Assembly (NCBI GenBank): GCA_963705115.1
Contig: CAVPIX010000016.1
Location: 579,051 to 643,050 of the forward strand
Length of the DNA: 64,000 nucleotides
DNA from: an uncultured delta proteobacterium
Lineage (GTDB): Bacteria > Desulfobacterota > Desulfobaccia > Desulfobaccales > 0-14-0-80-60-11
Reading direction: 5' to 3'
The notes under the pieces are model-generated. The model saw only the letters and a list, made by a program, of their open reading frames with translations, was not told where the DNA came from and ran no database searches. The translations under genes were made by a program, and so were the position numbers. Positions within the stretch are counted from its first letter, which is position 1, and each line of letters starts with the position of its first letter. Below, piece by piece: positions 7,017 through 64,000 of this stretch.

Positions 7017-7218
7017 GCTGGCCCTGGGACTCATCCGAGCCTATCAACTGTTCATAGCACCCCTACTTCCCAACTGCTGCCGGTTTGTTCCGAGCTGCTC
7101 GCAGTATGCCGCGGAGGCCATAAAAATTTACGGCTGCGTCAAAGGCTTGGGGCTGAGCCTGAAAAGGCTCCTGCGCTGTCACCCTCTCCATCCCGGCGGT
7201 TGGGACCCGGTTCCCTGA
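7009..7218 (+). CDS. yidD: membrane protein insertion efficiency factor YidD
   Basis: 69 aa, MTKLALGLIRAYQLFIAPLLPNCCRFVPSCSQYAAEAI...CHPLHPGGWDPVP, canonical YidD. ATG overlaps the rnpA stop (ATGACTAA). Confidence 0.9.
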   Translation: MTKLALGLIRAYQLFIAPLLPNCCRFVPSCSQYAAEAIKIYGCVKGLGLSLKRLLRCHPLHPGGWDPVP

Positions 7219-11407: not shown

Positions 11408-12064
11408 ATGAAAGATCCCCTGCTCCTGTTAGAGGAAGGCGCTGCGGACCTTGGCATAACGCTGCCCCAAGAGGCCATGTCCCGCTTTGCCGTTTATTTG
11501 CAGGAACTGCAAACCTGGAACGCCCGGGTGAATCTCACCGGCCTGAAATCCCCCCGGGATATTATAATCAAGCACTTTCTCGATTCCCTGGCCATCCTGC
11601 CCTTTCTTGACGATGCGGCCTCCCTGGCGGATTTGGGGAGCGGGGCCGGTTTTCCGGGGCTGGTGCTGAAATTGGCCCAGCCGAAGTTAGCCGTCACCCT
11701 GGTGGAGTCCCGGGGAAAAAAGGCAGCCTTTCTGGAGTATCTGGCGGGGCTCTGGCAGTTGCCCGGGGTGGAAATCATCCAGGCCCACCTGACCCCGAGA
11801 CTGGCGCAGGAATGGGGGCCCCGCTTTGCCGCGGTGACCTCCCGGGCCGCCTTTTCCCTGAAACATTTTCTGGAACTGGCCGCGCCCTTGCTCCTGCCGG
11901 GGGGGCGGGCCCTGGCCCTCAAGGGACCGGGGCTTTCGCCCCAGGAGATCCAGGGGGCGCAGAAACTGCTAACTAGGGTACAATTAGGAAGCCTGGAATT
12001 TACCGAAATTCAGTTGCCTATTTCCGGAGAGACGCGGCTGTTGGTCATAGCCAGGAAAAATTAG
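11408..12064 (+). CDS. rsmG: 16S rRNA (guanine527-N7)-methyltransferase RsmG
   Basis: 218 aa from ATG 11408; WNARVNLTGLKSPRDIIIKHFLDSL and SAM motif DLGSGAGFPGLVL. The upstream 48 codons of track ORF 11264.. translate repeat sequence. Confidence 0.9.
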   Translation: MKDPLLLLEEGAADLGITLPQEAMSRFAVYLQELQTWNARVNLTGLKSPRDIIIKHFLDSLAILPFLDDAASLADLGSGAGFPGLVLKLAQPKLAVTLVESRGKKAAFLEYLAGLWQLPGVEIIQAHLTPRLAQEWGPRFAAVTSRAAFSLKHFLELAAPLLLPGGRALALKGPGLSPQEIQGAQKLLTRVQLGSLEFTEIQLPISGETRLLVIARKN

Positions 12065-12090
12065 CCAATCGGTGTTCGTTCTTCTCTTTT

Positions 12091-12254
12091 CTCGTTCCCA
12101 AGTTTAACTTGGGAACGAGGTGAATAAAGGTCTTGAGTAGTGAGCTTTTCTCTTCTCGTCCCTTTCTTGTTCCCAAACTAAGCTTGGGAACGTTATTATA
12201 AGCCAAGCTGAGCTTGGCAGCCAGGTGCGCTCCCAAGTGCAACTTGGGAACGAG
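12091..12254. repeat. cluster of four related short hairpins (stem GTTCCCAAG...CTTGGGAAC)
   Basis: CTCGTTCCCAAGTTTAACTTGGGAACGAG (12091-12119), GTTCCCAAACTAAGCTTGGGAAC (12169-12191), GCCAAGCTGAGCTTGGC (12202-12218), CTCCCAAGTGCAACTTGGGAACGAG (about 12230-12254). Confidence 0.8.
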
Positions 12255-12397
12255 CCATTCAAAACCCCATCCAACCCCATCAATGGTAGCACGGGCATCC
12301 TGCCCGTGTCTGGACGGGCTGGAAGCCCGGCCTACCGGGCTTAGGTCTGATTGTGATAATAAGGTGCTTGAACTTTCTAAAAGAAGGATATTTCTAA

Positions 12398-12748
12398 ATG
12401 TCCCTTAAAATAATGTCAATCTTGCCTGTCTTATTACTCACAGCCTCCCTGACCATCCAGGGCTGCACCGCCGCCGCGGTGGCTTATGGGGTCAGCAAGA
12501 TGACCGAGCCTAAGACTCAATCTCCTCAACCGCCGCCCCGGGCCGCGGAACTGCGCACCTATCCCGAGTACGTCACGGAAATGGAACGGATTAATCTGGA
12601 GCGGGAGAAAGCCGGTCTGCAACCCCGTCCCATCATGACCCAGGATGAGTGGGCCTCGGCCCAGAAGGCCGGCAGCCCGCCCGTGCCGCCGGCTCCCCCC
12701 GTCCCACCTGCTGAACCACCCGGAAAAGCGGTTGAATATAAAGAATAA
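12398..12748 (+). CDS. small putative lipoprotein with proline-rich C-terminus
   Basis: 116 aa; signal-like N-terminus ...ILPVLLLTASLTIQGC (lipobox-like), then EPKTQSPQPPPRAAE... and PPVPPAPPVPPAEPP. No family recognised. Confidence 0.55.
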   Translation: MSLKIMSILPVLLLTASLTIQGCTAAAVAYGVSKMTEPKTQSPQPPPRAAELRTYPEYVTEMERINLEREKAGLQPRPIMTQDEWASAQKAGSPPVPPAPPVPPAEPPGKAVEYKE

Positions 12749-12915
12749 TGCATCATTAAGAGAAGACTTGTTATATTGAGTTGCGTTCTTCTGAGCTATT
12801 TTTGTAGCCGCAGGCTTTAGCCTGCGCCTGCACAGGCTGGAAAGCCTGTGCCACCGTTTGCTGGTATGGATAGACAAATTCACCCAGAGACCTCCTGTCC
12901 TTCAAACCGAAAACC

Positions 12916-13641
12916 ATGAACCATACAATTTTTCAGGCTTTGGGACTGATGCTCCTGTCCGTGATTGGTTTTAAGGAGGCAGTGGCGTCAGGCCCAGATT
13001 CCTTTGCCACAGAACGGCAGGCCATGGTGGCCCAGCAGCTCAAGGCCCGGGACATCACCGATCCCCGGGTGCTGGCGGCCATGGCAAAGGTCCCCCGGCA
13101 CCGGTTCGTGCCGGATTATCTCAGCCATCAGGCCTACGGCGACCATCCCCTGCCCATAGGCTCCGGCCAGACTATTTCCCAGCCCTATATCGTGGCCCTC
13201 ATGTCCCAGTGGGCCGAGGTCAAGCCCGGAGACAAGGTCCTGGAGGTGGGCACCGGCTCGGGGTATCAGGCGGCCATCCTGGCCGAACTCACGGAGCGGG
13301 TTTTCACCATGGAACTGCTCCCCGAATTGGCCGAAGCCGCGGGACGCCGCCTCCGGGCCCTGGGGTATGAACGCATCCAGGGGCGGGCCGGCGACGGCTA
13401 TCAGGGCTGGCCCGAGGAAGCCCCGTTTGATGCCATCCTGGTCACGGCCACCGCGCCGGAAATCCCCAAGGCATTACAGGAACAGCTCAAAGAGGGGGGC
13501 CGCCTGGTCATCCCGGTGGGACCCCAGGGGAGCGTGCAGCAACTCCTGCGCCTGCGCAAGGTGAAGGGTGAACTTAAAGAGGAAGAGCGCGTTCCCGTCC
13601 TTTTCGTGCCCCTGGTGAAGCCCGGGGAGGGGAAGAGGTAA
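12916..13641 (+). CDS. pcm: protein-L-isoaspartate O-methyltransferase paralogue with N-terminal signal peptide
   Basis: 241 aa; same PIMT motifs as 759..1442 ([36 protein letters not shown]), preceded by MNHTIFQALGLMLLSVIGFKEAVA-SG. Confidence 0.9.
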   Translation: MNHTIFQALGLMLLSVIGFKEAVASGPDSFATERQAMVAQQLKARDITDPRVLAAMAKVPRHRFVPDYLSHQAYGDHPLPIGSGQTISQPYIVALMSQWAEVKPGDKVLEVGTGSGYQAAILAELTERVFTMELLPELAEAAGRRLRALGYERIQGRAGDGYQGWPEEAPFDAILVTATAPEIPKALQEQLKEGGRLVIPVGPQGSVQQLLRLRKVKGELKEEERVPVLFVPLVKPGEGKR

Positions 13642-49096: not shown

Positions 49097-50110
49097 TCAG
49101 GCCCACACCCCATCAATGGCCGCCTGGCATTTGGGGCACTTGCCGTCCTGCAAAATGAACCCCTTGATGGCATACCCCAGGCGCTCGATCAGGAGTTCCC
49201 CGCAGCTGTAGCAGTAGGTGTTTTCCCCGCCCTGCCCCGGAATGTTCCCCGTATAGACATAGCGTAGGCCGGCTGCGACACCGATGTCCCGGGCTTTGAG
49301 CAGGGTCTCCGCCGGGGTGCGGGGCCGGTCCAGCATCTGGTAGGTGGGGAAAAAGGCGCTCACATGCCAGGGGATCTCCGGCCCCACCCCCTTGATGAAC
49401 TGGGCGATGTCGGTAAGCTCCTCCGTGGAGTCATTGTGTCCCGGGATCACCAGGGTGGTGACCTCGAGCCACACCCCCAACTTTTTCAGGCGCTGGATGG
49501 TGTCCAGGACCGGCTGCAGGCGGGCCTTGCAGACCTTGCGGTAAAAGTCGTCCCGGAAGCTTTTGAGATCAACGTTGTCCCCGGCCACGACCTCGGCCAT
49601 AGCGGTGGCCGACTCCTCAGTCATGAAGCCGTTGCTGACAAAGACATTGCGGATGCCTTGCTCCTTGGCCAACCGGGCCGTGTCCAGGGCAAACTCCATG
49701 AAAATGGTGGGCTCGGTGTAGGTATAGGAAATGGTGGCGCAGCGGTTGGCCTGGGCTTCCCGGACAATCGCCTCCGGGGAGCGCTCCATGCCGGGGATTT
49801 TTCCCTGGTGCCGTTTGGGGAACTGGGAAATGTCGTAGTTCTGGCAATGGAGGCACATGAAGTTGCAGCCCGCGGTGGCGATGGAGTAAGAGCGGGATCC
49901 CGGCAGGAAATGGAACAGAGGCTTTTTCTCGATGGGGTCGATATTTTCCGCCACCACCATGCCGTACACCAGGGAGTAGAGGGTGCCGTCCTGATTCTCC
50001 CGCACGTGGCAGAGTCCCCGTTTCCCCGGATCGATTTTGCATTCATGGGCGCACAGGTGACACTGGACCTTGCCTTCCTCCACCTTGTCGTAAAACCTGG
50101 CTTCGTGCAT
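49097..50110 (-). CDS. AmmeMemoRadiSam-system-type radical SAM enzyme (PFL-activase-like)
   Basis: 337 aa from ATG 50110 (GGAG RBS); MHEARFYDKVEEGKVQCHLCAHECKIDPGKRGLCHVREN..., radical-SAM cluster motif CNFMCLHCQN. Confidence 0.85.
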   Translation of the reverse strand: MHEARFYDKVEEGKVQCHLCAHECKIDPGKRGLCHVRENQDGTLYSLVYGMVVAENIDPIEKKPLFHFLPGSRSYSIATAGCNFMCLHCQNYDISQFPKRHQGKIPGMERSPEAIVREAQANRCATISYTYTEPTIFMEFALDTARLAKEQGIRNVFVSNGFMTEESATAMAEVVAGDNVDLKSFRDDFYRKVCKARLQPVLDTIQRLKKLGVWLEVTTLVIPGHNDSTEELTDIAQFIKGVGPEIPWHVSAFFPTYQMLDRPRTPAETLLKARDIGVAAGLRYVYTGNIPGQGGENTYCYSCGELLIERLGYAIKGFILQDGKCPKCQAAIDGVWA

Positions 50111-50260
50111 GGTGTTCTCCATCTTTTGGTCTTTAGTTAATAAAGTATGCCTTGCCCGGGTCATTGTAAAGGGTGCAGATCTTTTCCGGGGCGGGCGATT
50201 ATTTCTCCGTGGATGCTTTCCTTGCCGAGAAGATGCGTTTATGATACATCTAAACCGGAT

Positions 50261-50338
50261 GGTGGGCGTAGCTCAGTTGGTTAGAGCACCGGGTTGTGGC
50301 CCCGGAGGCCGCGGGTTCAAGTCCCGTCGCTCACCCCA
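50261..50338 (+). tRNA. tRNA-His (anticodon GTG) with encoded G-1 and CCA
   Basis: Manual cloverleaf: G-1; acceptor GTGGGCG/CGCTCAC; D arm GCTC-AGTTGGTTA-GAGC; anticodon arm CCGGG-TTGTGGC-CCCGG; variable AGGCC; T arm GCGGG-TTCAAGT-CCCGT; discriminator C; CCA. Confidence 0.95.
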
Positions 50339-50349
50339 ATGATTTCAAA

Positions 50350-50383
50350 GGGTTAGGCTTATGGCCTAGCCCTTTTCTTTTTC
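50350..50383 (+). terminator. rho-independent terminator candidate after tRNA-His
   Basis: GGGTTAGGC-TTATG-GCCTAGCCC (9 bp incl. one G:U) followed by TTTTCTTTTTC. Confidence 0.6.
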
Positions 50384-51110
50384 TTCCCCACATTATTCCC
50401 CACAGCATATTGAAAATTCAGGGTAATTCTTGTGGGATTATGCGCTTATGAAAGGTTTTCTCAAAACAGCTTGGGACTCCTGGCCGAGACCCGCCCCCCT
50501 ATACCTTCCCATAGGATTTATGGGCGGGGGTATGTCATAAGTAGGTTGCCACCCGTGCTATTGACTTAAAAACTGGTTGGGAAAATTCCAGAAATACAAA
50601 AAAGGCAGATCCATCTAGTCGCCAAAAGCCATTCTTTCCCGTTACTCCCCACTCTAACAAGCCATTTTTTCACGAAACTTATCAGGCGAAGGGTAAGGTA
50701 AGGGGTCGGAGTTTTTCTCTCGAAAATTGACGTTTAATTTGGGTTGAAACCTTCTTAGGGGGGTGTGCGGGTCAATCCAGGGGTGAGAAGTGAATTGTCA
50801 ATCCCCTCTAAAAATTTTAGAAAAACAAAAAAGGGTTGTCTATCGCAAATCTTCTTCAGCAAATCACTGGCCGCTTCAGTCCAGGTGCTTCCTCTGCCCC
50901 TCTCCCACCTTTCGCCTTGGTGGGCGTCTCATCCATCTGATGCATCTCTATTCCTTTGGGGGCGAACCCTCAAGTTCTTATAAGATGGTATGAGCTATCT
51001 GGTGACAGACGATGGGCTCAGATGTTGTAAGTCTGAAATCCGAAAAAATTAGTTTTTAAAGGAAACTTTTGCTACCATGGTTTACTGAAATCAAGGTAGG
51101 CGGGGTGCTC

Positions 51111-51962
51111 ATGGTTCAGGATGTTTTCCCTCATCTCCGAAATTTATTGGTTTGCACTGATGGCTCTCCTGCCAGCGATGGGGCAGTGAATGCCGGGCTA
51201 CAACTGGGAACCCTCACCGATGTCAAGATATGTTTGCTCGAGGTAATAACTTCTCCCGTGGCCTATGAACCCATCCCGGACCTGATATTGTCAGGGTGGG
51301 AAGAACAAGCGCGACAGCGGATGAGGACATATCAGGAAAAAGCAGCGAAGACCGGAGTGGCCCTGGAGGGTGCAGTGCGCACCAGTATATCCGTCCCTGA
51401 AGGCATCATGGAGGAGGCAGACGCCAGAAAGCCAGATTGGATTATTATGGGCCGCAAGGGGCTAAGCGGCATAAAACGTCTATTCATGGGAAGTGTGACT
51501 CGTCGGGTGATCGGCTCCAGTCATTATCACGTCTTGGTGGTGCCTCGGGAAGCCAACCTGGAGTTCAAAACAATCATGATCGCCCACGACGGCTCTGTCT
51601 TTGGAGAACATGCCTGGCGGCAGACGATTCTGTTGGCTGAAAAGGCCAACTCTGAAGTGATCGCCGTGTCGGTGGCTCGGGATAAATCTCGTCAAATAGA
51701 ATGCCAAATGGTTTTGCAACACCTGGAAGCCTCCGCCGCACGCCATGGTATAACTTTGCGATCCTTATTGCTTGAGGGTCGCCCTTTTGAACAGATCATC
51801 CAAGCCGCCCAGGAGGAAAGGGTCGATTTGATTGTTCTGGGCAGCCACGGTCGGTCGGGCTTAGACCTTCTATTAATGGGAAGCGTTGCGGAGCGGGTGA
51901 CCGGCACAGTCAGGTGTCCGGTTCTGGTAACGAAGTTCCCAATGAAGGAGGTGATGGTCTAA
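51111..51962 (+). CDS. universal stress protein, tandem UspA domains
   Basis: 283 aa from ATG 51111; two USP repeats each ending in the ATP-binding-type motif (IIMGRKGLSGIKRLFMGSVTRRV and LIVLGSHGRSGLDLLLMGSVAERV). Confidence 0.85.
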   Translation: MVQDVFPHLRNLLVCTDGSPASDGAVNAGLQLGTLTDVKICLLEVITSPVAYEPIPDLILSGWEEQARQRMRTYQEKAAKTGVALEGAVRTSISVPEGIMEEADARKPDWIIMGRKGLSGIKRLFMGSVTRRVIGSSHYHVLVVPREANLEFKTIMIAHDGSVFGEHAWRQTILLAEKANSEVIAVSVARDKSRQIECQMVLQHLEASAARHGITLRSLLLEGRPFEQIIQAAQEERVDLIVLGSHGRSGLDLLLMGSVAERVTGTVRCPVLVTKFPMKEVMV

Positions 51963-52139
51963 GCCATGTCTTCTGATAGACACTCCTTCTTTAGCCCCGC
52001 CACGATCGCCTCACTATGGGCTTCTGGTGGGGAAATTTCAAACTTTAGGCTCTCAATCTTTTTATAGAGGTATTTTAGGGGTCAATTTGAGCATGTTTTA
52101 ATGCCAACATACACTCTACTGTAAGTCCAAGCATTTATT

Positions 52140-52547
52140 TCAAACAAAAACACAATTCCTTCCTATAGACCTCTTAGCTTTATCAAGTCTCAAAGGAATT
52201 ATTGCAACCTTATGTGACCCAGGCTCAAATTCCCTATTAATAAACAATGAGATTGCATCATTACACTTATTATTAAATTCTGAGTCGCAGTTATCATCAT
52301 GTTCAGATTCTTCAAAAATAACCTTAGCCATTTCATCCTTTAAATAACTCTTTGCAAAATCCTCGCTTAAATATATCCAGAAATTATTGGGCTCGACTCC
52401 TTCTCCAAAAACAAACTCGACGTGAGGACAATAACGAAAAGATTCATCAACTATATCAATTAATGCTCCACAAACCGGACAGAAAAAGGGTATCCCTATC
52501 TCTATGGTTAACCTTTCTTCAGGGTTGAGCTTTTTATTCATATCCAT
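52140..52547 (-). CDS. AT-rich orphan gene, 135-aa protein with N-terminal zinc-ribbon-like CPVCG...CPH
   Basis: Uninterrupted ORF in a strongly AT-rich stretch (20 G+C in the 60 nt 52141-52200). Acidic middle (EESEHDDNCDSEF). No family recognised. Confidence 0.6.
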   Translation of the reverse strand: MDMNKKLNPEERLTIEIGIPFFCPVCGALIDIVDESFRYCPHVEFVFGEGVEPNNFWIYLSEDFAKSYLKDEMAKVIFEESEHDDNCDSEFNNKCNDAISLFINREFEPGSHKVAIIPLRLDKAKRSIGRNCVFV

Positions 52548-52632
52548 AACTTAAAAATCCATGCCGTGAAATTATTTAGAATAAGTGTACCTCTAATTTT
52601 CCAAGGGCTAATAGACTTGCCAACATCAATTA

Positions 52633-53586
52633 TTAACTTGTTGTTTTCAAAATGTGATCTCTTACCATTTTCGGCACAAATTCATATTGAATTGTGGGAA
52701 TATTTTTAGCTTTTCCAGTTCCTTTAATTCTGCGCAATAGTGGTTTTGGCAGAAAGTCATCAAAAAAATCATCCGTGTCAAAATCATCAGACTTTATGTT
52801 CTTTTTACATAAATATAACTCACACCATTCCATACCATTAGCACTTTTAAAATCTTGAAGACTTATTCTAGCCATTTTTGTAAGCGGATGGATGAACCAA
52901 GGCTCAACCTGAAAGAAACTTAATTCTGACTCTACATAATTAAATCCTTCTGGTGTAATGAAATAATAAAAAGATATTTTGCCATCAACGCCGCTCAATG
53001 CTACTTCGAGACAATATGGCTCCGTTGGAAGAGTAATATCTATAAACCCTGAGGTTATGCTTGCAGTGCCGTCATGAGTAGTATGATTCCCAATGATTAC
53101 TTGTGTAAGCCCTGGAATAACCTTTATATTTTTAAATTTTAGCTGAAATGGATTAAATGGATATAGCATCCCACCACATGCGCACGTTGGATTCTCAAAA
53201 TTAATGTCTCGCTTGTGCCATTTATCATCTTTTTGCAGCGCCTTAAAACCTTCTTTGTCCTTCATATAGAAATGGGAAGGCAACAAGAATCGTCCTGATA
53301 GGCAAGAAAAAAATATTATTGGCAAATTATCGTCAAGTATTGCAGATGAAAAATGATCAATGCTGGCAATTTCAACAAGTGAAAATCCGGCTGGAGAATC
53401 TATACGAAATATTTCAGTCTCTTCTGTATCCTCTGATTTTGCCTTATTCGTAGCTTCTTTTTTAGATGAATAAAGCAATAGCTGCCCTTGGGTATTCCCC
53501 AGAAAACCCATTTTTTTCCCCATGAAGACATTCTTTGGGCAATTTGCTATGAAGTCAGGTTTAACCCGCAAGGCATAAAAACTCAT
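52633..53586 (-). CDS. AT-rich orphan gene, 317-aa protein, no recognisable domain
   Basis: Uninterrupted 317-codon ORF despite AT-rich composition (stop-rich background), which argues for real coding. Starts 35 nt downstream of the methyltransferase stop on the same strand. Confidence 0.6.
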   Translation of the reverse strand: MSFYALRVKPDFIANCPKNVFMGKKMGFLGNTQGQLLLYSSKKEATNKAKSEDTEETEIFRIDSPAGFSLVEIASIDHFSSAILDDNLPIIFFSCLSGRFLLPSHFYMKDKEGFKALQKDDKWHKRDINFENPTCACGGMLYPFNPFQLKFKNIKVIPGLTQVIIGNHTTHDGTASITSGFIDITLPTEPYCLEVALSGVDGKISFYYFITPEGFNYVESELSFFQVEPWFIHPLTKMARISLQDFKSANGMEWCELYLCKKNIKSDDFDTDDFFDDFLPKPLLRRIKGTGKAKNIPTIQYEFVPKMVRDHILKTTS

Positions 53587-54584
53587 TCTTCACCTCAGGT
53601 CTAAATGTGGAACTCCTCGGGTTAATTGTTCCCCTTTCCCTGGAAGGCATCCGGCCAGCCGCCGTGCAGGTTGATGACTTCGTCGATTTCCTTCATGAGG
53701 CGGATGGTTTCGTGGAGGGCGATGACGATGCGGTGGTAGTGGGTGAGGTCGTCTGCCGAGAGGGTTCGGCCCTTACGGTCCTTGAGCCATTTCTGGCAGA
53801 CTTGATAGCCGCCGATGTGGAAGCTCCAGACCTCTTCGGGGACGCCGTGGAAACCGATGGAGCCGGTCACGGCATCGTTGGGGCCGCCAGGGCCGCCCTT
53901 GGCCTTCTTGGATTTGACCGCGTCCAGCCAGACCGTGTCGTCCGACCGCCCCACCTTCTCGACGACAGGACCAACGGGGCCGGTGAAGGTAAGGACCACG
54001 GGCAGTCGGTGACCAGGGGCGATGTCGTAGCGCCACGCCTTGGCGGGTTGGTCGTAGCGGGCGTGGAGAGCCTGTTGCATCGGGGCCTCAACCAGGTGAA
54101 GGGATACGAGTTCGCCGCCTAACTGGGCCAAGGCGTGGAATAGTTCGAGGCTCGACGCAAGCGGTAGGCGGGGGAAATCGATTTTCAGAAACTCTGAATA
54201 TCGGGATCTGTATTTGGGGCTGTGAAGCACCGCATATGCATAATGGAAGATGTCCTCAGGTGTTAAGCCTTGAGGCAAACCATGGGGGACTGCTTGAGGA
54301 ACACTAAGATTATTAGCCAATGATCTCAAGAATTCCGGCCTGAGGTTGGGTTGTCGTTTATATGATAGCGCCAAGGCTTTTCCGTCTGGATAAAGCCAAA
54401 AGGGGAAAGAGATAGTTTACCTCTTTCAAGGACACCGAATGACTCTCTGTCATTATCCTCGTGATTTTGCTAACCTAAAAATGACCCCCCTGGGGAGGTT
54501 TTGGGAACCCAAAAGTGACCCCCCTGACACTGACTTCTGATACCACTGGTGACCATCACCAAAGTGGGATCAGAGGTGGAAGGG

Positions 54585-56078
54585 ATGATCAGGATGGATC
54601 AGTATGGGTATATCCGCACCGCGCACCGGGTTTACCAGAAGAGCATCAAGCAGATTTGCCGGGAGACCGGTCATTCCCGGAAAACGGTGAGAAAGGTCCT
54701 CCGGAGTGAACCATGTGGCTATGCCCCCAGGACTGAGCAACCGTATCCAGTGTTGGGGCCCTACCTCCAGGTCATTGATCAGTGGCTGACAGAGGATAGA
54801 GCCAGGCCCAGGAAGCAACGGCACACCGCCAAGCGTATTTATGACCGCTTGGTGCGGGAACTGGGCTTTCAGGGCCATGACTCCACGGTGCGGCGCTATG
54901 TCCGCCAGGCCAAGAGGCGTTTGGGAGTGCAGGTGACGCCGGCTTTTATCCCCCTGGATCCGGAAGTGGGCCGGGAAGCCGAGGTAGACTGGGGTGCAGC
55001 CACAGCCATCATCGCCGGCGAGAGGATAACGATAAAATTTTTCTGCATGCGGTCCAAGTTTTCCGGGAAGCATTTCGTGCGCTGCTACCCTTGTGAGCGG
55101 CAGCAAGCCTTCCTGGACGGTCATCTCCATGCCTTTGCCTTTTTCAAGGGCATCCACGCCGTTCTGGTCTATGACAACCTGACCTCGGCAGTGAAGAAGG
55201 TCTGCCGCGGCAAAGTGCGTATCGAGCAGGAAGAGTTTGCCAAGTTCCGGGCCTACTATAATTTTACGGCGCGCTTTTGCAACCCTGACGGCGCCCACGA
55301 GAAGGGCGGGGTCGAAGGACTGGTGGGTTACGTGCGGCGGAACTACCTGGTGCCGGTGCCTGAGGCCGAGAGCCTGGAAGCCTTGAATGACAGACTTCTG
55401 GAGGAGTGTCTGGCCTATGGCGAGCACCGGATCAGGGGCCGGGAAGGCACCGTCAACGAGTTGTTTGCCGGGGAGCAGGGCCGTCTGTTACCGCTCCCGG
55501 CCGCACCCTTCAGCCTCACACAGATCACCTCCGGCAAGGTGGACGCCTATGCCACGGTGATCGTGGACAAGAACCGCTATTCCGTGCCCAGTGTCTACGC
55601 GGGGTTAAGAGTCCAGGTGCAGTTATCCGTGACTCACCTGGAGATCTTCCATAACGGCAAGAAGCTGGCCAGGCATCCCCGGGTCTTTGGTAACAACAAG
55701 TGGCAGCTTGACCCGGACCACTACCTGGAGCTGATTCAGCAAAGACCTGGCGCCTTTCACGACGCCCGGCCGCTGCGCCGCTGGCGGGAGACCTGGCCTC
55801 CCTGCCTGGAAAAACTTTTGGCCAGGTTCCAGGAGAATCAGGGAGAAACCGCGGGCATCAAGGATTTTATCTCGGTGCTGATGCTCTATCGGGAGCATCC
55901 GGGTGAGGCGATTGCGGCCGCGGTGGAACTGGCCTTGAAGAACCACCTCAGTTCCAGCCAAGGGGTGAAACATCTCCTGCAGCAGAGCAAGGTGGAACGC
56001 TCGGCGCCTCTTCCGCAATGGCCGGCGACCTTGGTGCCCGACCTCTCCGTTTATGGCCAGTTGGGAGGGGTGTCATGA
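54585..56078 (+). CDS. istA: IS21-family transposase IstA
   Basis: 497 aa; N-terminal HTH (KQICRETGHSRKTVRKVL), DDE integrase-core region; stop overlaps the istB ATG (ATGA). Confidence 0.9.
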   Translation: MIRMDQYGYIRTAHRVYQKSIKQICRETGHSRKTVRKVLRSEPCGYAPRTEQPYPVLGPYLQVIDQWLTEDRARPRKQRHTAKRIYDRLVRELGFQGHDSTVRRYVRQAKRRLGVQVTPAFIPLDPEVGREAEVDWGAATAIIAGERITIKFFCMRSKFSGKHFVRCYPCERQQAFLDGHLHAFAFFKGIHAVLVYDNLTSAVKKVCRGKVRIEQEEFAKFRAYYNFTARFCNPDGAHEKGGVEGLVGYVRRNYLVPVPEAESLEALNDRLLEECLAYGEHRIRGREGTVNELFAGEQGRLLPLPAAPFSLTQITSGKVDAYATVIVDKNRYSVPSVYAGLRVQVQLSVTHLEIFHNGKKLARHPRVFGNNKWQLDPDHYLELIQQRPGAFHDARPLRRWRETWPPCLEKLLARFQENQGETAGIKDFISVLMLYREHPGEAIAAAVELALKNHLSSSQGVKHLLQQSKVERSAPLPQWPATLVPDLSVYGQLGGVS

Positions 56079-56869
56079 AAGCCACCACGGAGATGGTGCT
56101 CACCGACAACCTGCAGACGCTCAAGCTCTCCCATATGCTGCGCCACCTGGAACCGCAACTCCGCCAGGCCCGGGAACAGAGCCTGGACTACGGCGACTTC
56201 CTGCTCTCCTTAACAGAGCTCGAACTGGAGGGGCGGGCCGAGAACCGCCTGAGACGGCGGCTAAGGGAGGCCAAGTTCCCGCTGCTGAAGACGCTGGAGA
56301 TGTTTGACTATCATGCCGCCCCGGGTCTGGACCGACGTCTGCTGCACCAACTGGCTTCGGGGGAATATATCAGCCAGCCGCGCAACGTCATCTTTTTGGG
56401 CAAAAGCGGCACGGGCAAAACCCACCTGGCTACAGGCCTGGGTGTGGAGGCCTGCCGCCAGGGTATTACCACCCGCTTTGTCACCGGCTGCGGTCTGGCC
56501 AACGAACTCCTGGAGGCACGCCAGGGGCTCGCCCTGAGCCGCATCATTAAACGATATGCGCGCTATGGTCTGCTCATCCTCGATGAACTGGGATATGTCC
56601 CCTTCTCCAAAGAAGGCGCCGAATTGCTCTTCCAGGTGTTGGCGGAACGGCATGAACGGGGGTCGGTGATCATTACGTCCAACCTGGGCTTTGCCGACTG
56701 GACCCAGGTTTTTGGCGAGCCCACCCTCACTGCGGCGTTGTTGGATCGCCTGACCCATAAAGCCCATATTATCACCTGTGACTGGGAAAGCTTCCGGCTC
56801 CAAGAGAGTTTGAAAGTGAAAGGTGGAGCAGCCAAAGAGAAATCGAGGCAGGCCAGCCTTGGCCGGTAG
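56075..56869 (+). CDS. istB: IS21-family ATP-binding helper protein IstB
   Basis: 264 aa; Walker A FLGKSGTGKTHLATGLG, Walker B LLILDELGY. Confidence 0.9.
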   Translation: MKATTEMVLTDNLQTLKLSHMLRHLEPQLRQAREQSLDYGDFLLSLTELELEGRAENRLRRRLREAKFPLLKTLEMFDYHAAPGLDRRLLHQLASGEYISQPRNVIFLGKSGTGKTHLATGLGVEACRQGITTRFVTGCGLANELLEARQGLALSRIIKRYARYGLLILDELGYVPFSKEGAELLFQVLAERHERGSVIITSNLGFADWTQVFGEPTLTAALLDRLTHKAHIITCDWESFRLQESLKVKGGAAKEKSRQASLGR

Positions 56870-59725
56870 AACGTTCACGGCAGGATGGCAGGGCGCGCTC
56901 GGCCTGCCCTGCATGTCCCTGGTGCCGGCAGGCCGAGCACGCTTTGCCCCGGCCCGTCTGGCTTACAAACTTCAACTAACCAGACAAGAGGGGGGGTCCC
57001 TTTTCGGTTCCCACAGGGGGTCACTTTTAGGTTCCCATTTACAATCCTCGCACAAATCACATGGCTGAAAGCGCCCACTTCCACTTTTCGAGTGGTCATC
57101 AAGCCCACATTTTGATTGTCAATCATATTTGACATGATAGCGGTTGCCGGCCGCGCAATGAAACCTTTGGTTCTGCCAGTGTAGTAGATGAAACGTTTAT
57201 CGAAGGGGCGATATAGAATTGGTTTGATCAGAGCCTTAGACAAGGGACTTGACCGAATATCCCTCCTTGGGCGAGCGCAACCTTCCAATCTTGCACATCA
57301 TTTCTAAGGTTAAACTCCTCACGCGCTTGCTCCTCGTCTAGTTCGGCAAATCTCTGGACACGCGTCCAAATCTCGTCGAGATTAATGGCAATCGTTAAAT
57401 GATCTCTTAGCTGTTACAACCCCCACAGAATGGAGAATCGTTGCCTCTGAAAGCAAAGGCATAAGCTCAAATTCTTCTCGGTGTGTTTGATCTTGGGCAA
57501 TAAAAAGGTAGAATGGGTTGCTTGGCCAGAGCTTATCGCACACAAGTGAATGCACTGAACTGGTAGTGAGGGAAAGATATTTCTTTCGCGACTGCCAAAT
57601 AAATCACCATGCATTACTGACGTATTTGATGATTTTGCTACCAACGTTCTGACAAAAAGGCCGACGGCAACCCCTTGCTGAATGTCAAAAACGTTTGCAT
57701 CGGGAGTTCCATCTGGGGCTGTTTCCTTTTTTTTGGTGTTGCCGTGGAGGTTGATTAACTGGCACCGCTGGAATGAGTTCAACAAACTCTTCCTCATCCC
57801 CCTGAATGTTGGATTATCCAAATACCCGTGATTTGTTATGTAGCCAAGGACTCCATGGCCAGCGTGTTCAACAAGTAGTTGGCCCAAACGGATAAACTTT
57901 ACATAATCATCTTGAAGCCAGAGTTTCTTCTCGCCAAGAGGTTCTCCATCGATGGTCTTGTAGGAATCGACCAAATGAACAGCATGTTCAGAATTGTTTG
58001 ATGAAACACCCGCATACGGCGGATTGCCAATGACAACGGTGAAGCGCTGGCAACGTTTGATGGTATTGACTGCTTGGGCTTCGTGGTCAAGGGCGGGTAT
58101 CATAGAAGCAAATCGGCCCGAGAAGTCATGAGCCGGCTCCAAGGCGTTCGTCAGGTAGACGCGCACGCGCTCCATCGCTACCGAAATGGTAACCCGTCTC
58201 ATAAAGCTTGAGCCCGATCTTCATGTGGGCAACGGCGTAGGGGGCCATGAGCAGTTCGTAGCCGTAAAGCCGAGGGAGGAGGTTCCGAGGGACATAGTCA
58301 TTCCAGAGGTGTTCGATTTCTCTGGGGCTGCACCCCTGGTCCTGCCACTTCTTAGTCATGGTTTTATGGATGAGGTCGATGACCTCCACGATAAAAGTGC
58401 CGGTGCCGGTGGCCGGGTCCAGGATTTGGACGAAGGGTTCCTCGGGCTTGGTGCCTTCCGGGATGGTGAGGCCCTCGTGACGCTCTACCATTTCACCCCA
58501 GGTGGTCGTGTCGGCAAGGCCGTCGGTCAAGCCAAATTCGGTGCGCAAGAGATCATCTACCGAACGGACAATATAGGAGACCACCGGCCGGGGGGTATAA
58601 AAAATTCCCCGTTTCATCTTCTGTTCGGCATCATATTCCTTCAGGAAGAGTTCGTAAAAGTGGATGACCGGGTCCTCTTCGGGCTTTAAGTCTCCGAAAT
58701 CCCGGACCACGGCTTCCATGTTGGCGGCGTCCAAGAGCTCCACCACCTCGCTCACCCCAAGCTCATCGAAGTCGATACCAGGGCCCTTGCCGACCTTCCC
58801 TTTGCGGCCCCCCACGTCCAGAAAGGTCTCCATGAGCTCTTTAAGGAAGGGATTGGTGACCGGCATCTGAGCTGCCAGATCGTCGGCGGTCTTGCCCTGA
58901 GGGTTTTCTACCCGAGCCGAGAGGAGGCCGTAAGCGATAGTTTGGGCATACATATCCGCAAAGCCTTCAGCGTCCAAGTCGTGGACCAGGGCCTCCTGGA
59001 AAGCCTTCATGATTTTGGTCAAGGGGCCATCCTTGGTTTCGATCTTCAGGATGGTCCTGATGCGGTCCCGGATGGCCCGGGCCAGTTCAGCCAAGCTTAC
59101 GGCCAAATCCCGGGAAGTATTAATAACCTCCTGGTGGCGCAGGGTGAAAGCCTCCCGCCAGATCCTGCGCCAGTCTTCCAAATCATCCGGATCATCCGGC
59201 CAGGATAGCCTTCCAACCAGCATTTTCGCCACATGGTCGAGGTGGAGAGGAGTGTCCAGGTTGTCCCAGCCGAGGACCTTGAGGGTGGGCAAATCATTCT
59301 TCCGGCCATGCTGGGCGAAGTGCGCAAAGCTGATGTGCCGGTCGCCCCCCTCGCCGTAGTTGGAGATAAAGAGCAAGTCGTCAGCCTGCCAGGCGGCGCT
59401 CTCAGCCCTGTTGGCCGAAGCCCGCTTCTTCAATACTACCCGGCTCAGGATGCGCCGCAGGGCCACAACGGGAAGGCGCTTGGGCTCAAACTTGACGAAG
59501 AAGATGCCCCAGGGCTGGTTTACATCCAAGGGGCGCAGACGTTTGATCTCCTGGATCTTGGCGGCGTTGGCTGGGTCGATGCCGAGCTCCTCGGGGGAGT
59601 AATCGAAGGTCAGTTCCTCGAAGTCCTCGTCAAGAATCGGCCAGTCCAGTTCATCCCGCAGGAACTTGATCAGGGACGGAAAGGTGCGAATCTGCCGCAA
59701 TCTCTCCCGGTAATCCGTCATTGGT

Positions 59726-62700
59726 TCACCCCTCGTTCAGCTCCATCCAACACCTGAGCTTCGGCTTGACCCCAACGGGGGCGTCAACCCGCTTGAGATA
59801 GGTATTTTTGATGTGCTTGAGCATCTTATTCCGGAGGTCTTTCAGGGTCTTTTGTTCGGTAACGCACTTGCGGGGAGTGCCGGGCTTGGAGCGGATACTG
59901 TCGATGATCTCCCCTGGCTCTTCGAGGATGGTATCCCGGTCCAGGTCATAGAGATACCAGCGGGTTGTCCCGGCTTCCTCGGTGAACTCGCCGGTCTCTT
60001 TGTCCAACGCGGGTAGGCCATAGCAGAAAAAGACGCCCCTGACCCCTTTGGCGGGACGTTTGCGACCGCTGAAAATGGCACCTGGAAAGCCGTTCAGGAT
60101 GCCGATGAGATCAGGATTTTCCTGAATCAGGGCCTGATACTCAAGATGCATCTCCTCGACGGCGGTCTTGGTTCCCTCATAATCGTGATTGAACTCTTTG
60201 AGAGCCTCAAAGTCGTCCTCAGGTCTGAGCAACTTCTTGCCCTCGATGCCCATGGTCTTGGAGATTAAAAGAGTTTTTTGGGTGACGATGCGGTAAAGCG
60301 CCAGGATGGCGTTCAGCTCATCCGGAGGCAGGAAGTTCCAGAAGGACACTCTGCCCCGGGACGCAGCGACCTCAGGATGGTCCTGAGTCAGTTTCTTTTC
60401 CACCGCGGGACTCATGCGCCGGTCCACGCGGCCGATGCGCTGCATAAGGCGGACTGGATTCCAATGAATATCATAGTTGATCATCCGGGAAGCATCCTGG
60501 AGGTTAAGACCTTCAGAAAGGACGTCGGTGGAGATGAGGACGCGGGTCTCCGTTAGGCCCTTGGCCTTGAGTTCGGCGGAAGTGGCGCCGTTGTAATAGG
60601 GGGAAAAGCTCCGAATGATGTCGGCCCGGTTGCCCTTGCTGGAGCTGTCGACCTGGGCCACTCCATCGATACCCGCTTCCTGGAGTTGGCGGTGGAGATA
60701 GCGGGCCGTATCCGCGAACTCGGTGAAGATGAGGACCTTTTGGCCTTCCAGGTCTTTGGATTTGAGGAGACGGATGAGCTTTTTCAACTTATCATCATGT
60801 CGGGGCTCAAACTTTCTGGTCTCCTCAAGAAAGCTGGCGATCTGATCGAGATCCAGAAAGGTCTCCTGCATAATCTCAACGACCTCGTATTCGTCGCGGC
60901 TCAGCTTAGTAACGGCTTCGAGGAGTTCCTGCGGGACGATATCCTCGTCCACGTCTTCAAGTTCCTCCTCGTCCCAGAACGAACGCTGTCGCTGATGAAC
61001 ATAGCCCAGGACCTCGGCGTGCTGCTGCTTCCAACGCTCCAGGCGCTTCTTCTCGGCATCTGTTTCGCTGTGGACCTCTAAAAAAGCCAGTAGCTTTTTG
61101 AGCAAGCGGTCACAGGAAAACTCAAAGGCATTGACGGAACTTTCAAACCGTTTCAGGAACTGGGTGCGGATCAGGCTGATTACCTGCTTTTGGCGATTCT
61201 CCACCCAGGGATCGATGCTCTTATCGTCGCCTTTGTAATACGCCAAGGGGTAATAAATCGGGAGGCTAAACAGAGGATTCTTCTTGGCGAAGGCCTTCTC
61301 GAAGAGCTCCAGGAGACGGCCATAGGTCTTGCGAATGGAATACTCGGCTACGGCCGGGGCTTTCCTCTCCGGAAAAGCGGCAGACGCACCGGTCTCTCGA
61401 ATCTGGCTTTCGCGGGCATAGGCCCGGCTGCGCTGAACAACAAGATGCCGGAAAATATCATCGCCAGCCAGGGTCTTCTGGGCCTCGGCTAAATTCTCCC
61501 CAAGATCCAATCCATCTCCACCAAGGCGCTTATTGAGTTCTCCCTCCATGCGGTTGAAATGAGCGCGCAGATTGTGCACGCCTAAGGTTCGGGCAAAGTA
61601 GGCTTCGTCCCTCCGGGTAAAGAGCTCGGCCATGTGGCGAAAATCGGCGAGCCTATTATTAATCGGCGTGGCCGTCAGCATGAAGACTGTCTTCGGCCGA
61701 ATGGAGTCGTCAAGCAGATCGAAGAGCTTGTAATAACGTGACCGGAAATCGTCATTTTCAGAGCTCCCTTGCCTACCGGGGTTTCGAAAGTGGTGGGCCT
61801 CGTCGATGATGACTGCGTCTGCGAGCTCGGCGATGCGAAGAAACCTCTCTGGAAAGTCGCCCTTCCGGCCAAGGTCCGTGTGGCTGAAAACCGCGAGATT
61901 ACTGAAATCGGCTCCGCCCCCAACCCCTCCGATGTGAGGAAGATACTGGTGCAAATGCGGCTCCCAGACACCTTCCTTGGTGGGCTTTGGGGCAAAGAGG
62001 ACAACACGTTTCCCCTCATGCAAAATCAGGCGCTCGATGAGCATCAGCCCCACGAAGGTCTTGCCGAGGCCCACCCCGTCGCAGAGGAAGGCGCCACCAT
62101 GTTGTCGGGCGATCTTTACCAGAGCCCAGTAGGCTTCTTTCTGATAGCGGTCGAGCCTCCCAAACATCTTAGAGCGGGCCTCTTCCCACTCGCTGGCGGT
62201 TATCTCGTGCCCACGAAAGAACTCATGCAGGGCTTTGGCATAAATGTCAAAGGGAGTATAGGCGTGAATGTGCCGGGAGATGAGACTCAGCACGTCATCG
62301 GTGATTTCCTTTGCCTCCTCCCAATGGTGATCGAACCAATCTTGAAGCTGAGCAACCTCCCGACCGCTCTGAATTTGGACATTGAGCTCTATGTTTTCGG
62401 TAAGTCCCGGCCGGGTGAAGTTGCTGGATCCAACCAGAGCCTGTGCACCGACCACGTCAAGTTTGGCGTGGGTGATATAGGCCTTGGCGTGGAACTTATC
62501 TCGGTCATAGACTCGACACTCGATTTGGCGTGACTTGAGGGCCTTGGTGATCGCCGGGACCCCATCAAGGAACGGATTGGCTTCCTTCTCGGCTTCAAGG
62601 CTCTCGTCCAGACTCTCAGTGGCCTTTGCCTTAACGGCCTCGAGAAGAGCCTTCCTCGTGCGTTGGGTCGTCTCGGCGCCCATTAAGACACGGATCTTCT

Positions 62701-62875
62701 CCAACCCTTGCCATTTGCCATCAAGTTCGAGCAAAGAGCCGATCTCGAAGAATCCTGTGCAAATATCGAAACTCTTGGCGATCCCCGTCCATTCCTCGAG
62801 GTAACGGAGACCGGTCCAGCCGGATACACTGTTGTCGACGATGAAGAGGGCGCCGCCTTTCCGCTCGATTAACAT
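59726..62875 (-). CDS. PLD-family nuclease domain fused to SNF2/DEAD-like helicase (YeeB-like partner of the methyltransferase)
   Basis: 1049-aa uninterrupted ORF; HKD motif FHAKAYITH...GSSNFT; helicase motif I DGVGLGKT, motif II IIDEAHHFRN, helicase-C (HWNPVRLMQRIGRVDR). Stop is 4 nt before the methyltransferase ATG. Confidence 0.9.
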   Translation of the reverse strand: MLIERKGGALFIVDNSVSGWTGLRYLEEWTGIAKSFDICTGFFEIGSLLELDGKWQGLEKIRVLMGAETTQRTRKALLEAVKAKATESLDESLEAEKEANPFLDGVPAITKALKSRQIECRVYDRDKFHAKAYITHAKLDVVGAQALVGSSNFTRPGLTENIELNVQIQSGREVAQLQDWFDHHWEEAKEITDDVLSLISRHIHAYTPFDIYAKALHEFFRGHEITASEWEEARSKMFGRLDRYQKEAYWALVKIARQHGGAFLCDGVGLGKTFVGLMLIERLILHEGKRVVLFAPKPTKEGVWEPHLHQYLPHIGGVGGGADFSNLAVFSHTDLGRKGDFPERFLRIAELADAVIIDEAHHFRNPGRQGSSENDDFRSRYYKLFDLLDDSIRPKTVFMLTATPINNRLADFRHMAELFTRRDEAYFARTLGVHNLRAHFNRMEGELNKRLGGDGLDLGENLAEAQKTLAGDDIFRHLVVQRSRAYARESQIRETGASAAFPERKAPAVAEYSIRKTYGRLLELFEKAFAKKNPLFSLPIYYPLAYYKGDDKSIDPWVENRQKQVISLIRTQFLKRFESSVNAFEFSCDRLLKKLLAFLEVHSETDAEKKRLERWKQQHAEVLGYVHQRQRSFWDEEELEDVDEDIVPQELLEAVTKLSRDEYEVVEIMQETFLDLDQIASFLEETRKFEPRHDDKLKKLIRLLKSKDLEGQKVLIFTEFADTARYLHRQLQEAGIDGVAQVDSSSKGNRADIIRSFSPYYNGATSAELKAKGLTETRVLISTDVLSEGLNLQDASRMINYDIHWNPVRLMQRIGRVDRRMSPAVEKKLTQDHPEVAASRGRVSFWNFLPPDELNAILALYRIVTQKTLLISKTMGIEGKKLLRPEDDFEALKEFNHDYEGTKTAVEEMHLEYQALIQENPDLIGILNGFPGAIFSGRKRPAKGVRGVFFCYGLPALDKETGEFTEEAGTTRWYLYDLDRDTILEEPGEIIDSIRSKPGTPRKCVTEQKTLKDLRNKMLKHIKNTYLKRVDAPVGVKPKLRCWMELNEG

Positions 62876-62928
62876 TGGGTCTCTTTTCTCAGTCCCGTTT
62901 GGATTTAAAAATTAGTAGTCGTCACTCA

Positions 62929-63069
62929 TCATGTAAACCGGCAAGCCGAGGCCCTATTACTTCCGCAACTCTGGGGGTGCGTGATAGGGGCAACCAGCTT
63001 GGCCTTGGTTTCGGCTTCACTCAGGCACACATTCAACACACTCTTGGACTTGGTTTGGTTTTTCAGCAT
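62929..63069 (-). pseudogene. 46-codon fragment resembling the N-terminus of type I/III restriction-enzyme R subunits
   Basis: MLKNQTKSKSVLNVCLSEAETKAKLVAPITHPQSCG...; the SEAETKAKLV-P-I string matches the HsdR_N-type opening (SEA-TRAKLIDP) as I recall it, then the frame degenerates and stops. Confidence 0.3.
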
Positions 63070-63404
63070 CTTCTACTAATTACTTTATGCCCCAGTATAG
63101 GGTCGGTGGTCAAATTATTTTAAGAAGTGGCTTATGGCGGGCTTGATTCGGTCAGTCACTGATCCCCGGTCCCCTTTTCTTGCCATCGCGTCAATCGGCC
63201 CTCCCGGGGGTTTCCACCCAGTCAGTCGGGGTATCATGAGCAAGGAAGACAGGACAAAAATGAGATGTTTTTCTCGTCATCCGGAAGTTGATTGTTCCCC
63301 CTGGCAAAGGAATTAGTGTCTACCCTGGCAAGACCCAACCTCATTGACAACCTCTCCAGTTGTGAAATAAGTGGAGCTACTATCTCTTATAAAGTTCAAA
63401 ATCC

Positions 63405-64000
63405 ATGAAAGTCTGCCCATCCTGCAAAGCCAGATATTCGGATGAAGACCAATTTTGTTCCAGGTGTGGTTCCAATTTGGTCCAGAAACCCTTGGAGGAA
63501 CAAGAACCTTTTAGGCAGGGGAAAAGAGTCAATTTATTCCTGATCTATGTGCTTCCCACCATTCTTCTTGTATCTATTGTGGCCGGGGTTTTTTTCTACC
63601 TAAATTACGGACCCAGTAAGACTCTTCCAGTTCATCAACCAGAAAAGTCAGAGGAGACAGATAGTTCCAAGGCAAAACCCAAGGTTGTCCCAGAAATAAC
63701 TTCTGAAGGTTACGCTCGCCTCATAAAAGAAGTACAGCCCGCTATTGTCACCATAAAAACTTATGATCGATCAGGCGAAAAACGAAGCCTTGGCAGTGGA
63801 TTTTTTATCAATGATAAAGGACACTTAATTACAAACTATCATGTATTAAAGGATGCTTATTATGCCATCATAAAGTTTCCAGATGGCAGGGAAATCAAAA
63901 TCTATACAGATAAGGCGATTGGAATAGATCGAGAGGCAGATTTGGTAAAGATTAAAGTTAAGTTACAAAAGCCTTCTCTCAATTACTTAAAGATAGCCGA
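63405..64000 (+). CDS. zinc-ribbon / single-TM / trypsin-like (S1C, HtrA-like) serine protease, 3' end outside window
   Basis: Not in the track (no stop in window). MKVCPSCKARYSDEDQFCSRCGSNL (zinc ribbon), TM LFLIYVLPTILLVSIVAGVFFYL, then protease-domain start AIVTIKTYDRSGEKRSLGSGFFINDKGHLITNYHVLKD...DLVKIKV. Confidence 0.75.
   Translation, partial: MKVCPSCKARYSDEDQFCSRCGSNLVQKPLEEQEPFRQGKRVNLFLIYVLPTILLVSIVAGVFFYLNYGPSKTLPVHQPEKSEETDSSKAKPKVVPEITSEGYARLIKEVQPAIVTIKTYDRSGEKRSLGSGFFINDKGHLITNYHVLKDAYYAIIKFPDGREIKIYTDKAIGIDREADLVKIKVKLQKPSLNYLKIA

Follow-up and report, generated by a model that had tools for sequence, protein, structure and literature searches.

A decaying PLD-SNF2 helicase-methyltransferase module beside a low-GC gene pair of probably separate origin in an uncultured Desulfobaccales bacterium

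Type ISP restriction enzymes, such as LlaGI and LlaBIII, combine a nuclease, a superfamily 2 (SF2) motor, an N6-adenine methyltransferase, and a recognition domain, and this logic is common to the module described here. In Bacillus subtilis, the gene for DnmA(YeeA), a methyltransferase from the IIG/IIL lineage that lacks a nuclease, adjoins a helicase gene, and DnmA/YeeB/YeeC have been proposed to form a Type I-like system that depends on the methyltransferase in a Type I-like manner (PMC7261158, PMC2731913). A further family, cataloged in PADLOC as C3a139 'HKD+Snf2', is a candidate type III CRISPR accessory family without demonstrated function (Shah et al. 2018, PMC6546367). Here, we analyzed a 64,000-nucleotide stretch of DNA from an uncultured delta proteobacterium of the Desulfobaccales (assembly GCA_963705115.1, contig CAVPIX010000016.1, positions 579,051 to 643,050; hereafter, the window), in which genes for a PLD-SNF2 helicase and an N6-adenine methyltransferase are followed on the same strand by two small AT-rich genes, orf317 and orf135 (hereafter, the orphans). 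We consider it reasonably probable that the locus is a decaying restriction module lying beside an independently acquired and unrelated pair of defense-island cargo genes. The module would comprise a PLD-nuclease/SNF2 translocase and, 4 nucleotides (nt) downstream, a gamma-class N6-adenine methyltransferase with a recognition domain, the latter having been killed by the insertion of an IS21-family element, which left a clean 7-bp duplication, and by at least three frameshifts that split its catalytic motifs. The conserved orphan pair would have come separately, on a segment of about 1.5 kb with low guanine-cytosine (GC) content. The anatomy of the locus and the lesions in its genes are established with high confidence. 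The four genes, in order of transcription, are:

62875-59726, minus strand: PLD(HKD)-nuclease and SNF2 helicase gene, 1049 amino acids (aa), from the list of open reading frames (ORFs)
59721-53622, minus strand: methyltransferase/specificity pseudogene, starting 4 nt past the helicase stop
53586-52633, minus strand: orf317, 317 aa, after a gap of 35 nt from the last methyltransferase fragment
52547-52140, minus strand: orf135, 135 aa, after a gap of 85 nt from orf317

Base composition separates the orphans from their surroundings. The first 50000 positions of the window have 60.2% GC, the helicase gene 55.4%, and the two ends of the methyltransferase gene 57-58%, while orf317 and orf135 have 35.7% and 34.6%, respectively; the middle of the methyltransferase gene, its presumed variable recognition region, has 47%. 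An earlier note on this DNA, made from its letters alone, had reported the positions, the gaps, and this jump in composition, and its coordinates proved exact. The note preferred to see the PLD-SNF2/methyltransferase system as an undescribed variant in which the orphans, transcribed together with it, serve as accessory, effector, or immunity components, and named an independently acquired two-gene module as the alternative.

To compare the locus with others, the helicase was searched against one genome per GTDB species, which yielded 446 relatives, and the best 80 were taken as comparison loci (L002-L081, each with flanks of up to 10 kb, the helicase lying at about 10001-13147 in most). Relatives of orf317, of the zinc-ribbon family of orf135, and of a 157-aa family that accompanies them elsewhere were found at 0 of these 80 loci, whether searched with tblastn, using all family members as queries, or with family hidden Markov models (HMMs). 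Moreover, clustering of the flanking ORFs brought out no third gene conserved with the pair; its largest cluster was present in 12 of 62 loci. An accessory role would be in keeping with the co-directional arrangement and its short gaps (35 and 85 nt), with the lack of a terminator-like site past the methyltransferase, with the retention of the arrangement in L001, a near-identical metagenome contig with the gene order of the window, and with the position of zinc-ribbon paralogues in another locus (L085), where they also follow a methylase/helicase-type system (Hma). The neighborhood survey nevertheless largely refutes it, the difference of 20 points in GC and the occurrence of orphan relatives alone or with unrelated systems speak against it as well, and we regard it as highly improbable. 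That the orphans are not part of the helicase-methyltransferase module can be said with high confidence; they are not evidence for a new variant of it, and the alternative of independent acquisition holds, given the 0 of 80 loci and a GC content of 35% against 55-60%.

Orphan relatives in other contigs had the following surroundings:

L085-L089 (with the orf317 relative P0006): genes for a resolvase, a DrmC-like PLD protein, a ThsB-like TIR protein, a 217-aa membrane-anchored protein, and P0006
L095 (with the orf317 relative P0010): genes for ARPP-1 (3e-84), a 125-aa protein, a PD-(D/E)xK/Cas4-like nuclease, a 267-aa protein, a 158-aa protein, P0010 (3816-4718), and, after a gap of 80 nt, a zinc-ribbon protein (4799-5101)
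P0002 contig (with the orf135 relative P0002): an incomplete gene upstream, a gap of 77 nt, and P0002, laid out as in the window

In L085-L089, the P0006 side converges on six small unknown genes arrayed immediately behind HmaB (1552 bits) and HmaC (1170 bits); two of the six are zinc-ribbon paralogues. The zinc-ribbon protein of L095 shared 49% identity with a 109-aa protein of L085, and its 158-aa protein shared 57% with the product of the first gene past HmaC in L085. ARPP has been described as belonging to predicted antiviral systems in which REase-fold nucleases also occur (PMC9503650). Homologues of both orphans, whose neighborhoods the earlier note had asked to see surveyed, thus occurred jointly next to Hma/TIR and ARPP/nuclease genes, defense genes that have no relation to the helicase-methyltransferase module. 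All long contexts of orf317 relatives, three in number, were defense neighborhoods, so that the finding named in the note as fatal to a defense connection, homologues never in such contexts, did not materialize. Other orf317 relatives were on contigs of 1-3 kb with differing neighbors or none, and relatives of both orphans recurred side by side or no more than 2 kb apart. With moderate confidence, we conclude that the orphans are a mobile module living in defense islands.

We also noted that L085:10905-13482 (minus strand) and L095:2385-5101 (plus strand) are arrays of small, mostly acidic genes that share at least three families in differing order, namely the 157/158-aa, orf317-like, and CPxC...CxH families, the L085 array directly following HmaC. 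Such shuffled co-directional arrays of small unknown genes would fit a reading of the orphans as members of variable sets of small acidic counter-defense or immunity-type inhibitors (anti-restriction or antitoxin-like binders) on a mobile element, and not as defense effectors. The low isoelectric points (pI) of the partners (4.7 for orf135, 4.5 for the L095 zinc-ribbon protein, 4.1-4.2 for the 157/158-aa family), the lack of any enzyme domain, the two contexts that abut methylase/helicase restriction-like systems, and the resolvase gene nearby in L085 would also fit. However, IMG/VR viral contigs, INPHARED phages, and PLSDB plasmids contained no relatives of orf317, orf135, or the 109-aa or 158-aa proteins, the orf317 family is just mildly acidic (pI 5-6.4), and attC-like intergenic folds were not found; we consider inhibitors of this kind unlikely. 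A role of orf317 as a DNA mimic was rejected on the same pI range. Integron cassettes were also rejected as an origin of the arrays, as the intergenic regions folded no better than shuffles (z -1.2 to +1.5) and formed no attC-like hairpins.

The orf317 family is very rare. A word-indexed homology search found nothing, and relatives were recovered when HMMER was run exhaustively over 1.84 billion cluster representatives, 11 of which belong to the family. Their alignment (A1) has 27-41% identity and 12 invariant positions, including S94-C95, L102-P103, H105-F106, and C135-x-C137-G138; the invariant cysteines and histidine provide four candidate metal ligands, a probable Cys-His-Cys-Cys metal site. 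The A1 profile retrieved only P0013 and the L001 fragment from a set of 5.8 billion proteins, and a degenerate DNA pattern matched only the known P0006 contig and two chance sites. An SD-like (Shine-Dalgarno-like) GAGGTG lies upstream of orf317. The 267-aa protein of L095 was considered as a distant orf317 paralogue and rejected (hhalign probability 0.4%). For orf135, a relative with 74% identity was P0002, and the pattern CPxC-x10-13-CxH-xx-FV was common to orf135 and three small proteins from other loci. An HMM built solely from these three non-window relatives (the L085 109-aa and 132-aa proteins and the L095 101-aa protein) retrieved orf135 among 8490 ORFs with an E value of 6.6e-6, the next unrelated match being at 0.079, and the CPxC...CxH motif was invariant in five sequences (alignment A5). 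The motif is zinc-ribbon-like and its metal binding putative; Zn_ribbon/CPXCG Pfam models matched one orf135 paralogue only, below threshold. This pattern of conservation indicates that orf317 and orf135 are real genes. The motifs are located as follows:

53266-53313, minus strand: FFSC..G..LPSHFY of orf317
53170-53184, minus strand: C135-x-C137-G of orf317
52470-52481 and 52407-52433, minus strand: N-terminal CPVC-x13-CPH-xx-FV zinc-ribbon-like motif of orf135

Neither orphan matched Pfam, PADLOC, NCBIfam, or PHROG, in agreement with the earlier note, which had recognized no domain in them, and none of the 11 orf317 family members matched Pfam or PADLOC. The AlphaFold2 model of orf317, built on the 11-sequence alignment, had a predicted local distance difference test (pLDDT) score of 87.8 and a predicted template modeling (pTM) score of 0.84, and comprised an N-terminal alpha/beta domain, a beta-sandwich at about 160-262, an acidic disordered linker (263-283), and a C-terminal helix; the model of orf135 was unreliable (pLDDT 42). 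Foldseek searches of the orf317 model against PDB and BFVD returned nothing below an E value of 0.01, the weak matches being Ig-like sandwiches (ApaG, TTHA0547, and the GUS Ig domain, at 0.04 or worse), and the orf317 profile had no match among PDB sequences. With low confidence, we propose that the pair is stand-alone defense-island cargo, in which orf317 might use its Ig-like domain as a metal-stabilized binder or sensor, partnered by the small zinc-ribbon protein, in conflicts with phages or mobile elements. That the orphan module is itself a defense system is a tentative idea, and we hold it to be possible rather than likely. Equally doubtful is the broader proposal that the orf317 family, with or without its CPxC...CxH partner and the 157-aa family, forms an unrecognized and rare anti-phage or conflict module that travels alone between defense islands, with a fold unmatched in PDB and BFVD.

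Several points weigh against the reading of the locus as a decaying module beside separately acquired cargo. No effector or enzymatic domain is recognizable in the orphans, so that any defense mechanism for them is conjecture, and only three independent long contexts back the association with defense islands, most contexts of orf317 relatives being contigs of 1-5 kb. The pairing of the two genes is facultative, several orf317 relatives (L082, L084, L091, L096, and P0008) having other neighbors, or none, downstream. Promoter and terminator scans at the orphans gave results at chance level only, and the inserted IS21-family element now separates the two genes from the promoter of the helicase. 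Assembly errors might, in principle, account for the methyltransferase frameshifts, though not for the insertion. Finally, single-base indels break orf317 into three ORFs in the sister contig L001 (8959-9915). There, orf135 (10001-10366) has an altered C-terminus, and the indels in both genes sit at short A runs; they reflect either real decay or sequencing error.

The state of the L001 copy bears on whether the orphans might be inert hitchhikers on AT-rich DNA that arrived by recent transfer, is silent or decaying, and serves no function at present. Besides the fragmentation of orf317 in L001, the extreme mismatch in composition, the lack of a convincing promoter, the blocking of upstream read-through by the inserted element, and the decay of the neighboring system itself would all be consistent with this. 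Against it, both ORFs are intact in the window, orf317 aligns over its full length with all invariant residues kept, and the orf317 family is clearly under purifying selection elsewhere; additionally, the window and L001 differ by at most 0.4% over the segment, which leaves little time for decay either way. On balance, we find inert hitchhiking quite unlikely. The comparison with L001 further revealed a mosaic, with a difference of no more than 0.4% at 51000-53500 and 61500-63500 and of 14-22% over the C-terminus of the helicase and the N-terminus of the methyltransferase (window 58000-60500, L001 about 4600-7100). This divergent tract looks like an allelic replacement inside the cassette.

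The helicase is full-length, with all of its catalytic motifs in place and without an elevated number of substitutions, as the earlier note had suggested in calling it intact. Specifically, the 16 catalytic residues checked (HKD, GSSN, Walker A, DEAH, and motifs III and VI) were identical in 80 of 80 relatives, and five of 424 near-invariant positions were changed in the window protein, against a family median of four (rank 26th of 80). Decay of the helicase following loss of the methyltransferase was not seen on this count. The protein thus has the motifs of a catalytically competent PLD-SNF2 nuclease, an activity that is predicted only. Pfam domains were PLDc_2 (2e-11), ResIII/SNF2, and Helicase_C (6e-19). 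The best PADLOC model was C3a139 'HKD+Snf2' (8e-55, residues 59-820, the last 230 residues lying outside the match), and the PADLOC model PLD_Helicase matched residues 668-819 only (2e-22). Solved-structure relatives were weak only (RapA, 1e-7), and plasmid matches had merely 25-27% identity and no informative annotation. The motifs are located as follows:

62477-62494, minus strand: FHAKAY
62414-62431, minus strand: GSSNFT
62057-62077, minus strand: Walker A, GVGLGKT
61790-61804, minus strand: DEAHH
60419-60442, minus strand: motif VI, QRIGRVDR

The methyltransferase/specificity gene, in contrast to the helicase gene, is dead in this genome. The earlier note had called it wrecked, which is correct as to its being broken, but had overlooked the insertion of an IS21-family element; at least three frameshifts are now added to its lesions. 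The gene remnants and the element are laid out as follows:

59721-58126, 58202-57414, 57288-57051, and 54374-53622, minus strand: methyltransferase fragments
54462-57043, plus strand: IS21-family element, 2582 bp, on the strand opposite to the methyltransferase
54549-56078, plus strand: istA, 509 aa (NCBIfam transpos_IS21 NF033546, 254 bits, cutoff 160)
56018-56869, plus strand: istB, 283 aa (Pfam IstB_IS21 PF01695, 1e-73, 248 bits)
54455-54461 (left) and 57044-57050 (right): 7-bp target-site duplication ATCCTCG

The methyltransferase fragments matched N6_Mtase, Eco57I, and Type_ISP_C (PF18135; 2.4e-44 and 1.1e-11), and the PADLOC model REase_MTase_IIG (PDLC03610) matched across fragments with 208, 198, and 128 bits, from model position 144 on. 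Motif I for S-adenosylmethionine (AdoMet) binding, DPATGTGTF, is at 58393-58419, and motif IV, the catalytic NPPY (here GNPPY), at 58014-58028. The frameshifts lie near 58173, at about 57590, and at about 54400; the first is a +1 insertion relative to the intact relative L003 and parts motif I from motif IV, and the frame still changes three times after in silico removal of the element and one copy of the duplication. The element ends begin with TG, bear terminal inverted repeats, and contain repeated AACCTAAAAGTGACCCCC motifs; one end reads TGATTTTGCTAACC... and the other, as its reverse complement, TGTAAATGGGAACC.... It is present as a single copy within the window, and its insertion site is empty in L001. 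An IstA above its cutoff, an IstB, inverted repeats, and a duplication place the element in the IS21 family, in which it is an ordinary member with no unusual feature, relevant solely as the agent of the gene disruption. We also observed that the methyltransferase middle (57051-58173) shared 27-66% identity with relatives whose N-terminal region shared 67-86%, and a low-GC, divergent middle of this kind is behavior typical of a hypervariable specificity domain, as judged from these alignments.

The persistence of an intact nuclease beside a dead methyltransferase had been called unusual in the earlier note, on the grounds that losing the methylase alone would normally be self-toxic if the nuclease were still active. 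A paradox of this kind is not supported, because the methyltransferase carries the target-recognition domain. In Type ISP enzymes, the motor/ATPase is activated only upon target recognition by the methyltransferase and recognition domain (PMC7049714), and deletion of dnmA/yeeA in B. subtilis caused no growth defect (PMC7261158). By analogy, the PLD-SNF2 protein would be inert without its methyltransferase/recognition partner: the nuclease motor would need that subunit to find its target sites and be activated on them, and losing it would disarm restriction along with modification, so that the loss would be tolerated. Moreover, among about 67 relatives, five to eight likewise have a full-length helicase whose methyltransferase is broken or missing. 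Five of these are L007, L024, L027, L053, and L063, with possibly three more; some are long-read metagenome-assembled genomes, in which assembly errors are possible. The locus illustrates that such systems can lose their methyltransferase/specificity gene without killing the host.

Across the comparison loci, the module recurred as a pair. The best 80 of the 446 helicase relatives matched over their full length with 68-87% identity and came from Acidobacteriota, Chloroflexota, Actinomycetota, Spirochaetota, Proteobacteria, and other phyla. In most loci, the methyltransferase started 4 nt past the helicase stop as a single ORF of 1125-1516 aa, and it was intact as one ORF in 56 of about 67 informative loci. 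Full-length identity this high across distant phyla, together with the conserved 4-nt gap, indicates an unusually recent and wide horizontal spread, and the module is a widespread, self-contained, and horizontally mobile two-gene unit. The neighbors that recurred belong to other mobile or defense elements, namely an RVT_1 protein (9 loci), a HigB/helix-turn-helix (HTH) pair (8 loci), and transposases. The RVT_1 (reverse-transcriptase) protein, of about 1283 aa, lies directly downstream of the pair on the same strand in 9 of 62 loci (for example, L052:10016-13867) and may represent either an adjacent DRT-like system or a genuine association; the HigB-like toxin/HTH pair lies upstream of the helicase (for example, L007:7688-8170).

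Beyond orf135, two further features were considered:

50262-50338, plus strand: tRNA-His (GTG), the landmark of a presumed island
51069-51962, plus strand: usp, a tandem-domain universal stress protein gene (Pfam Usp, 1.5e-47)

The distance from tRNA-His to orf135 is 1.8 kb, with usp between them and convergent with orf135, an arrangement also present in L001. The earlier note had assigned the cassette to a tRNA-His island; the tRNA gene is there, but neither an integrase nor a repeat of its 3' end was found in 50000-64000, and the borders of the 'island', up to the window end, are thus not established. Flanking repeats around the AT-rich segment were looked for and none found, and the region had no match in E. 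coli genomes. The flanks at 50339-51068 and 62876-64000 are of lower GC (39-52%) and have no convincing ORFs.

Taken as a whole, the cassette is a degraded but otherwise ordinary representative of a two-gene family that is very widespread and experimentally uncharacterized, and that is possibly worth characterizing given its 446 or more relatives and a helicase that is 68-87% identical across phyla. The orphans are a cheap candidate for phage-challenge screens, as orf317 is well modeled, neither has a match in the searched libraries, and they or their relatives lie beside three different defense systems, although the rarity of the orf317 family limits the generality of any result.

Among known systems, the orphans correspond to no described family and have generic traits only, namely the CPxC...CxH zinc-ribbon-like motif and the Ig-like beta-sandwich. 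The helicase-methyltransferase pair is better placed, and the earlier note's description of it as a restriction-like defense module is supported. The best-scoring helicase model was C3a139 'HKD+Snf2', yet there are no CRISPR-cas genes at this locus. With MANTIS (Gao_RL) MtsD, SauUSI, and Type-2 BREX-related HKD+Swi2/Snf2 effectors, the module shares a PLD and SF2 helicase effector coupled to the marking of self DNA by an adenine methyltransferase, the similarity being limited to the helicase C-domain. MANTIS, however, has four genes, for the AAA+ protein MtsA (DUF499), MtsB, the DUF1156-type methyltransferase MtsC, and the PLD-helicase MtsD, whereas the PLD-helicase here accompanies another methyltransferase type and has no DUF499, DUF3780, or DUF1156 partner. 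The helicase also remained far below the cutoffs of NCBIfam NF042964 'phospholipD_antiphage' (145 bits against 1100) and DISARM DrmD NF038317 (127 against 610), and no DrmA/DrmB-like genes flank the pair. The earlier term 'YeeA/YeeB-like' applies loosely: as in DnmA/YeeB/YeeC, a nuclease-less methyltransferase adjoins a helicase, and there, methyltransferase loss is non-toxic. That system, however, has three genes in the order methyltransferase-helicase-YeeC and an MmeI-family methyltransferase, whereas here the helicase comes first, no YeeC-like or other conserved third gene follows, and the Pfam matches are to Eco57I and Type_ISP_C rather than MmeI, apart from a faint MmeI_Mtase flag on one L001 fragment only.

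Type IIL/IIG enzymes (7lo5; REase_MTase_IIG) gave the best sequence match of the methyltransferase, in which their fused N-terminal nuclease is absent, the match beginning at model position 144 or 7lo5 residue 280; the PLD-SNF2 protein would thus supply nuclease activity in trans. Against solved structures, the intact L003 methyltransferase matched 7lo5 (5e-33), LlaBIII (2e-24), and LlaGI (4e-21), in each case confined to the methyltransferase and recognition parts. The likeness to Type ISP lies in the Type ISP C-terminal specificity domain carried by the N6-adenine methyltransferase. Type ISP enzymes, in contrast, are one polypeptide, whereas here and in relatives there are two ORFs 4 nt apart; their nuclease is Mrr/PD-(D/E)xK, whereas here it is PLDc_2/HKD; and the motor here is SNF2-like, with the weak similarity to solved structures noted above, unlike theirs. 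The module is not a Type ISP, YeeABC, DISARM, or MANTIS system as these are defined, and its domain content would be best described as 'split Type-ISP-like', that is, a Type ISP/IIL-like enzyme divided between two proteins and equipped with a PLD nuclease.

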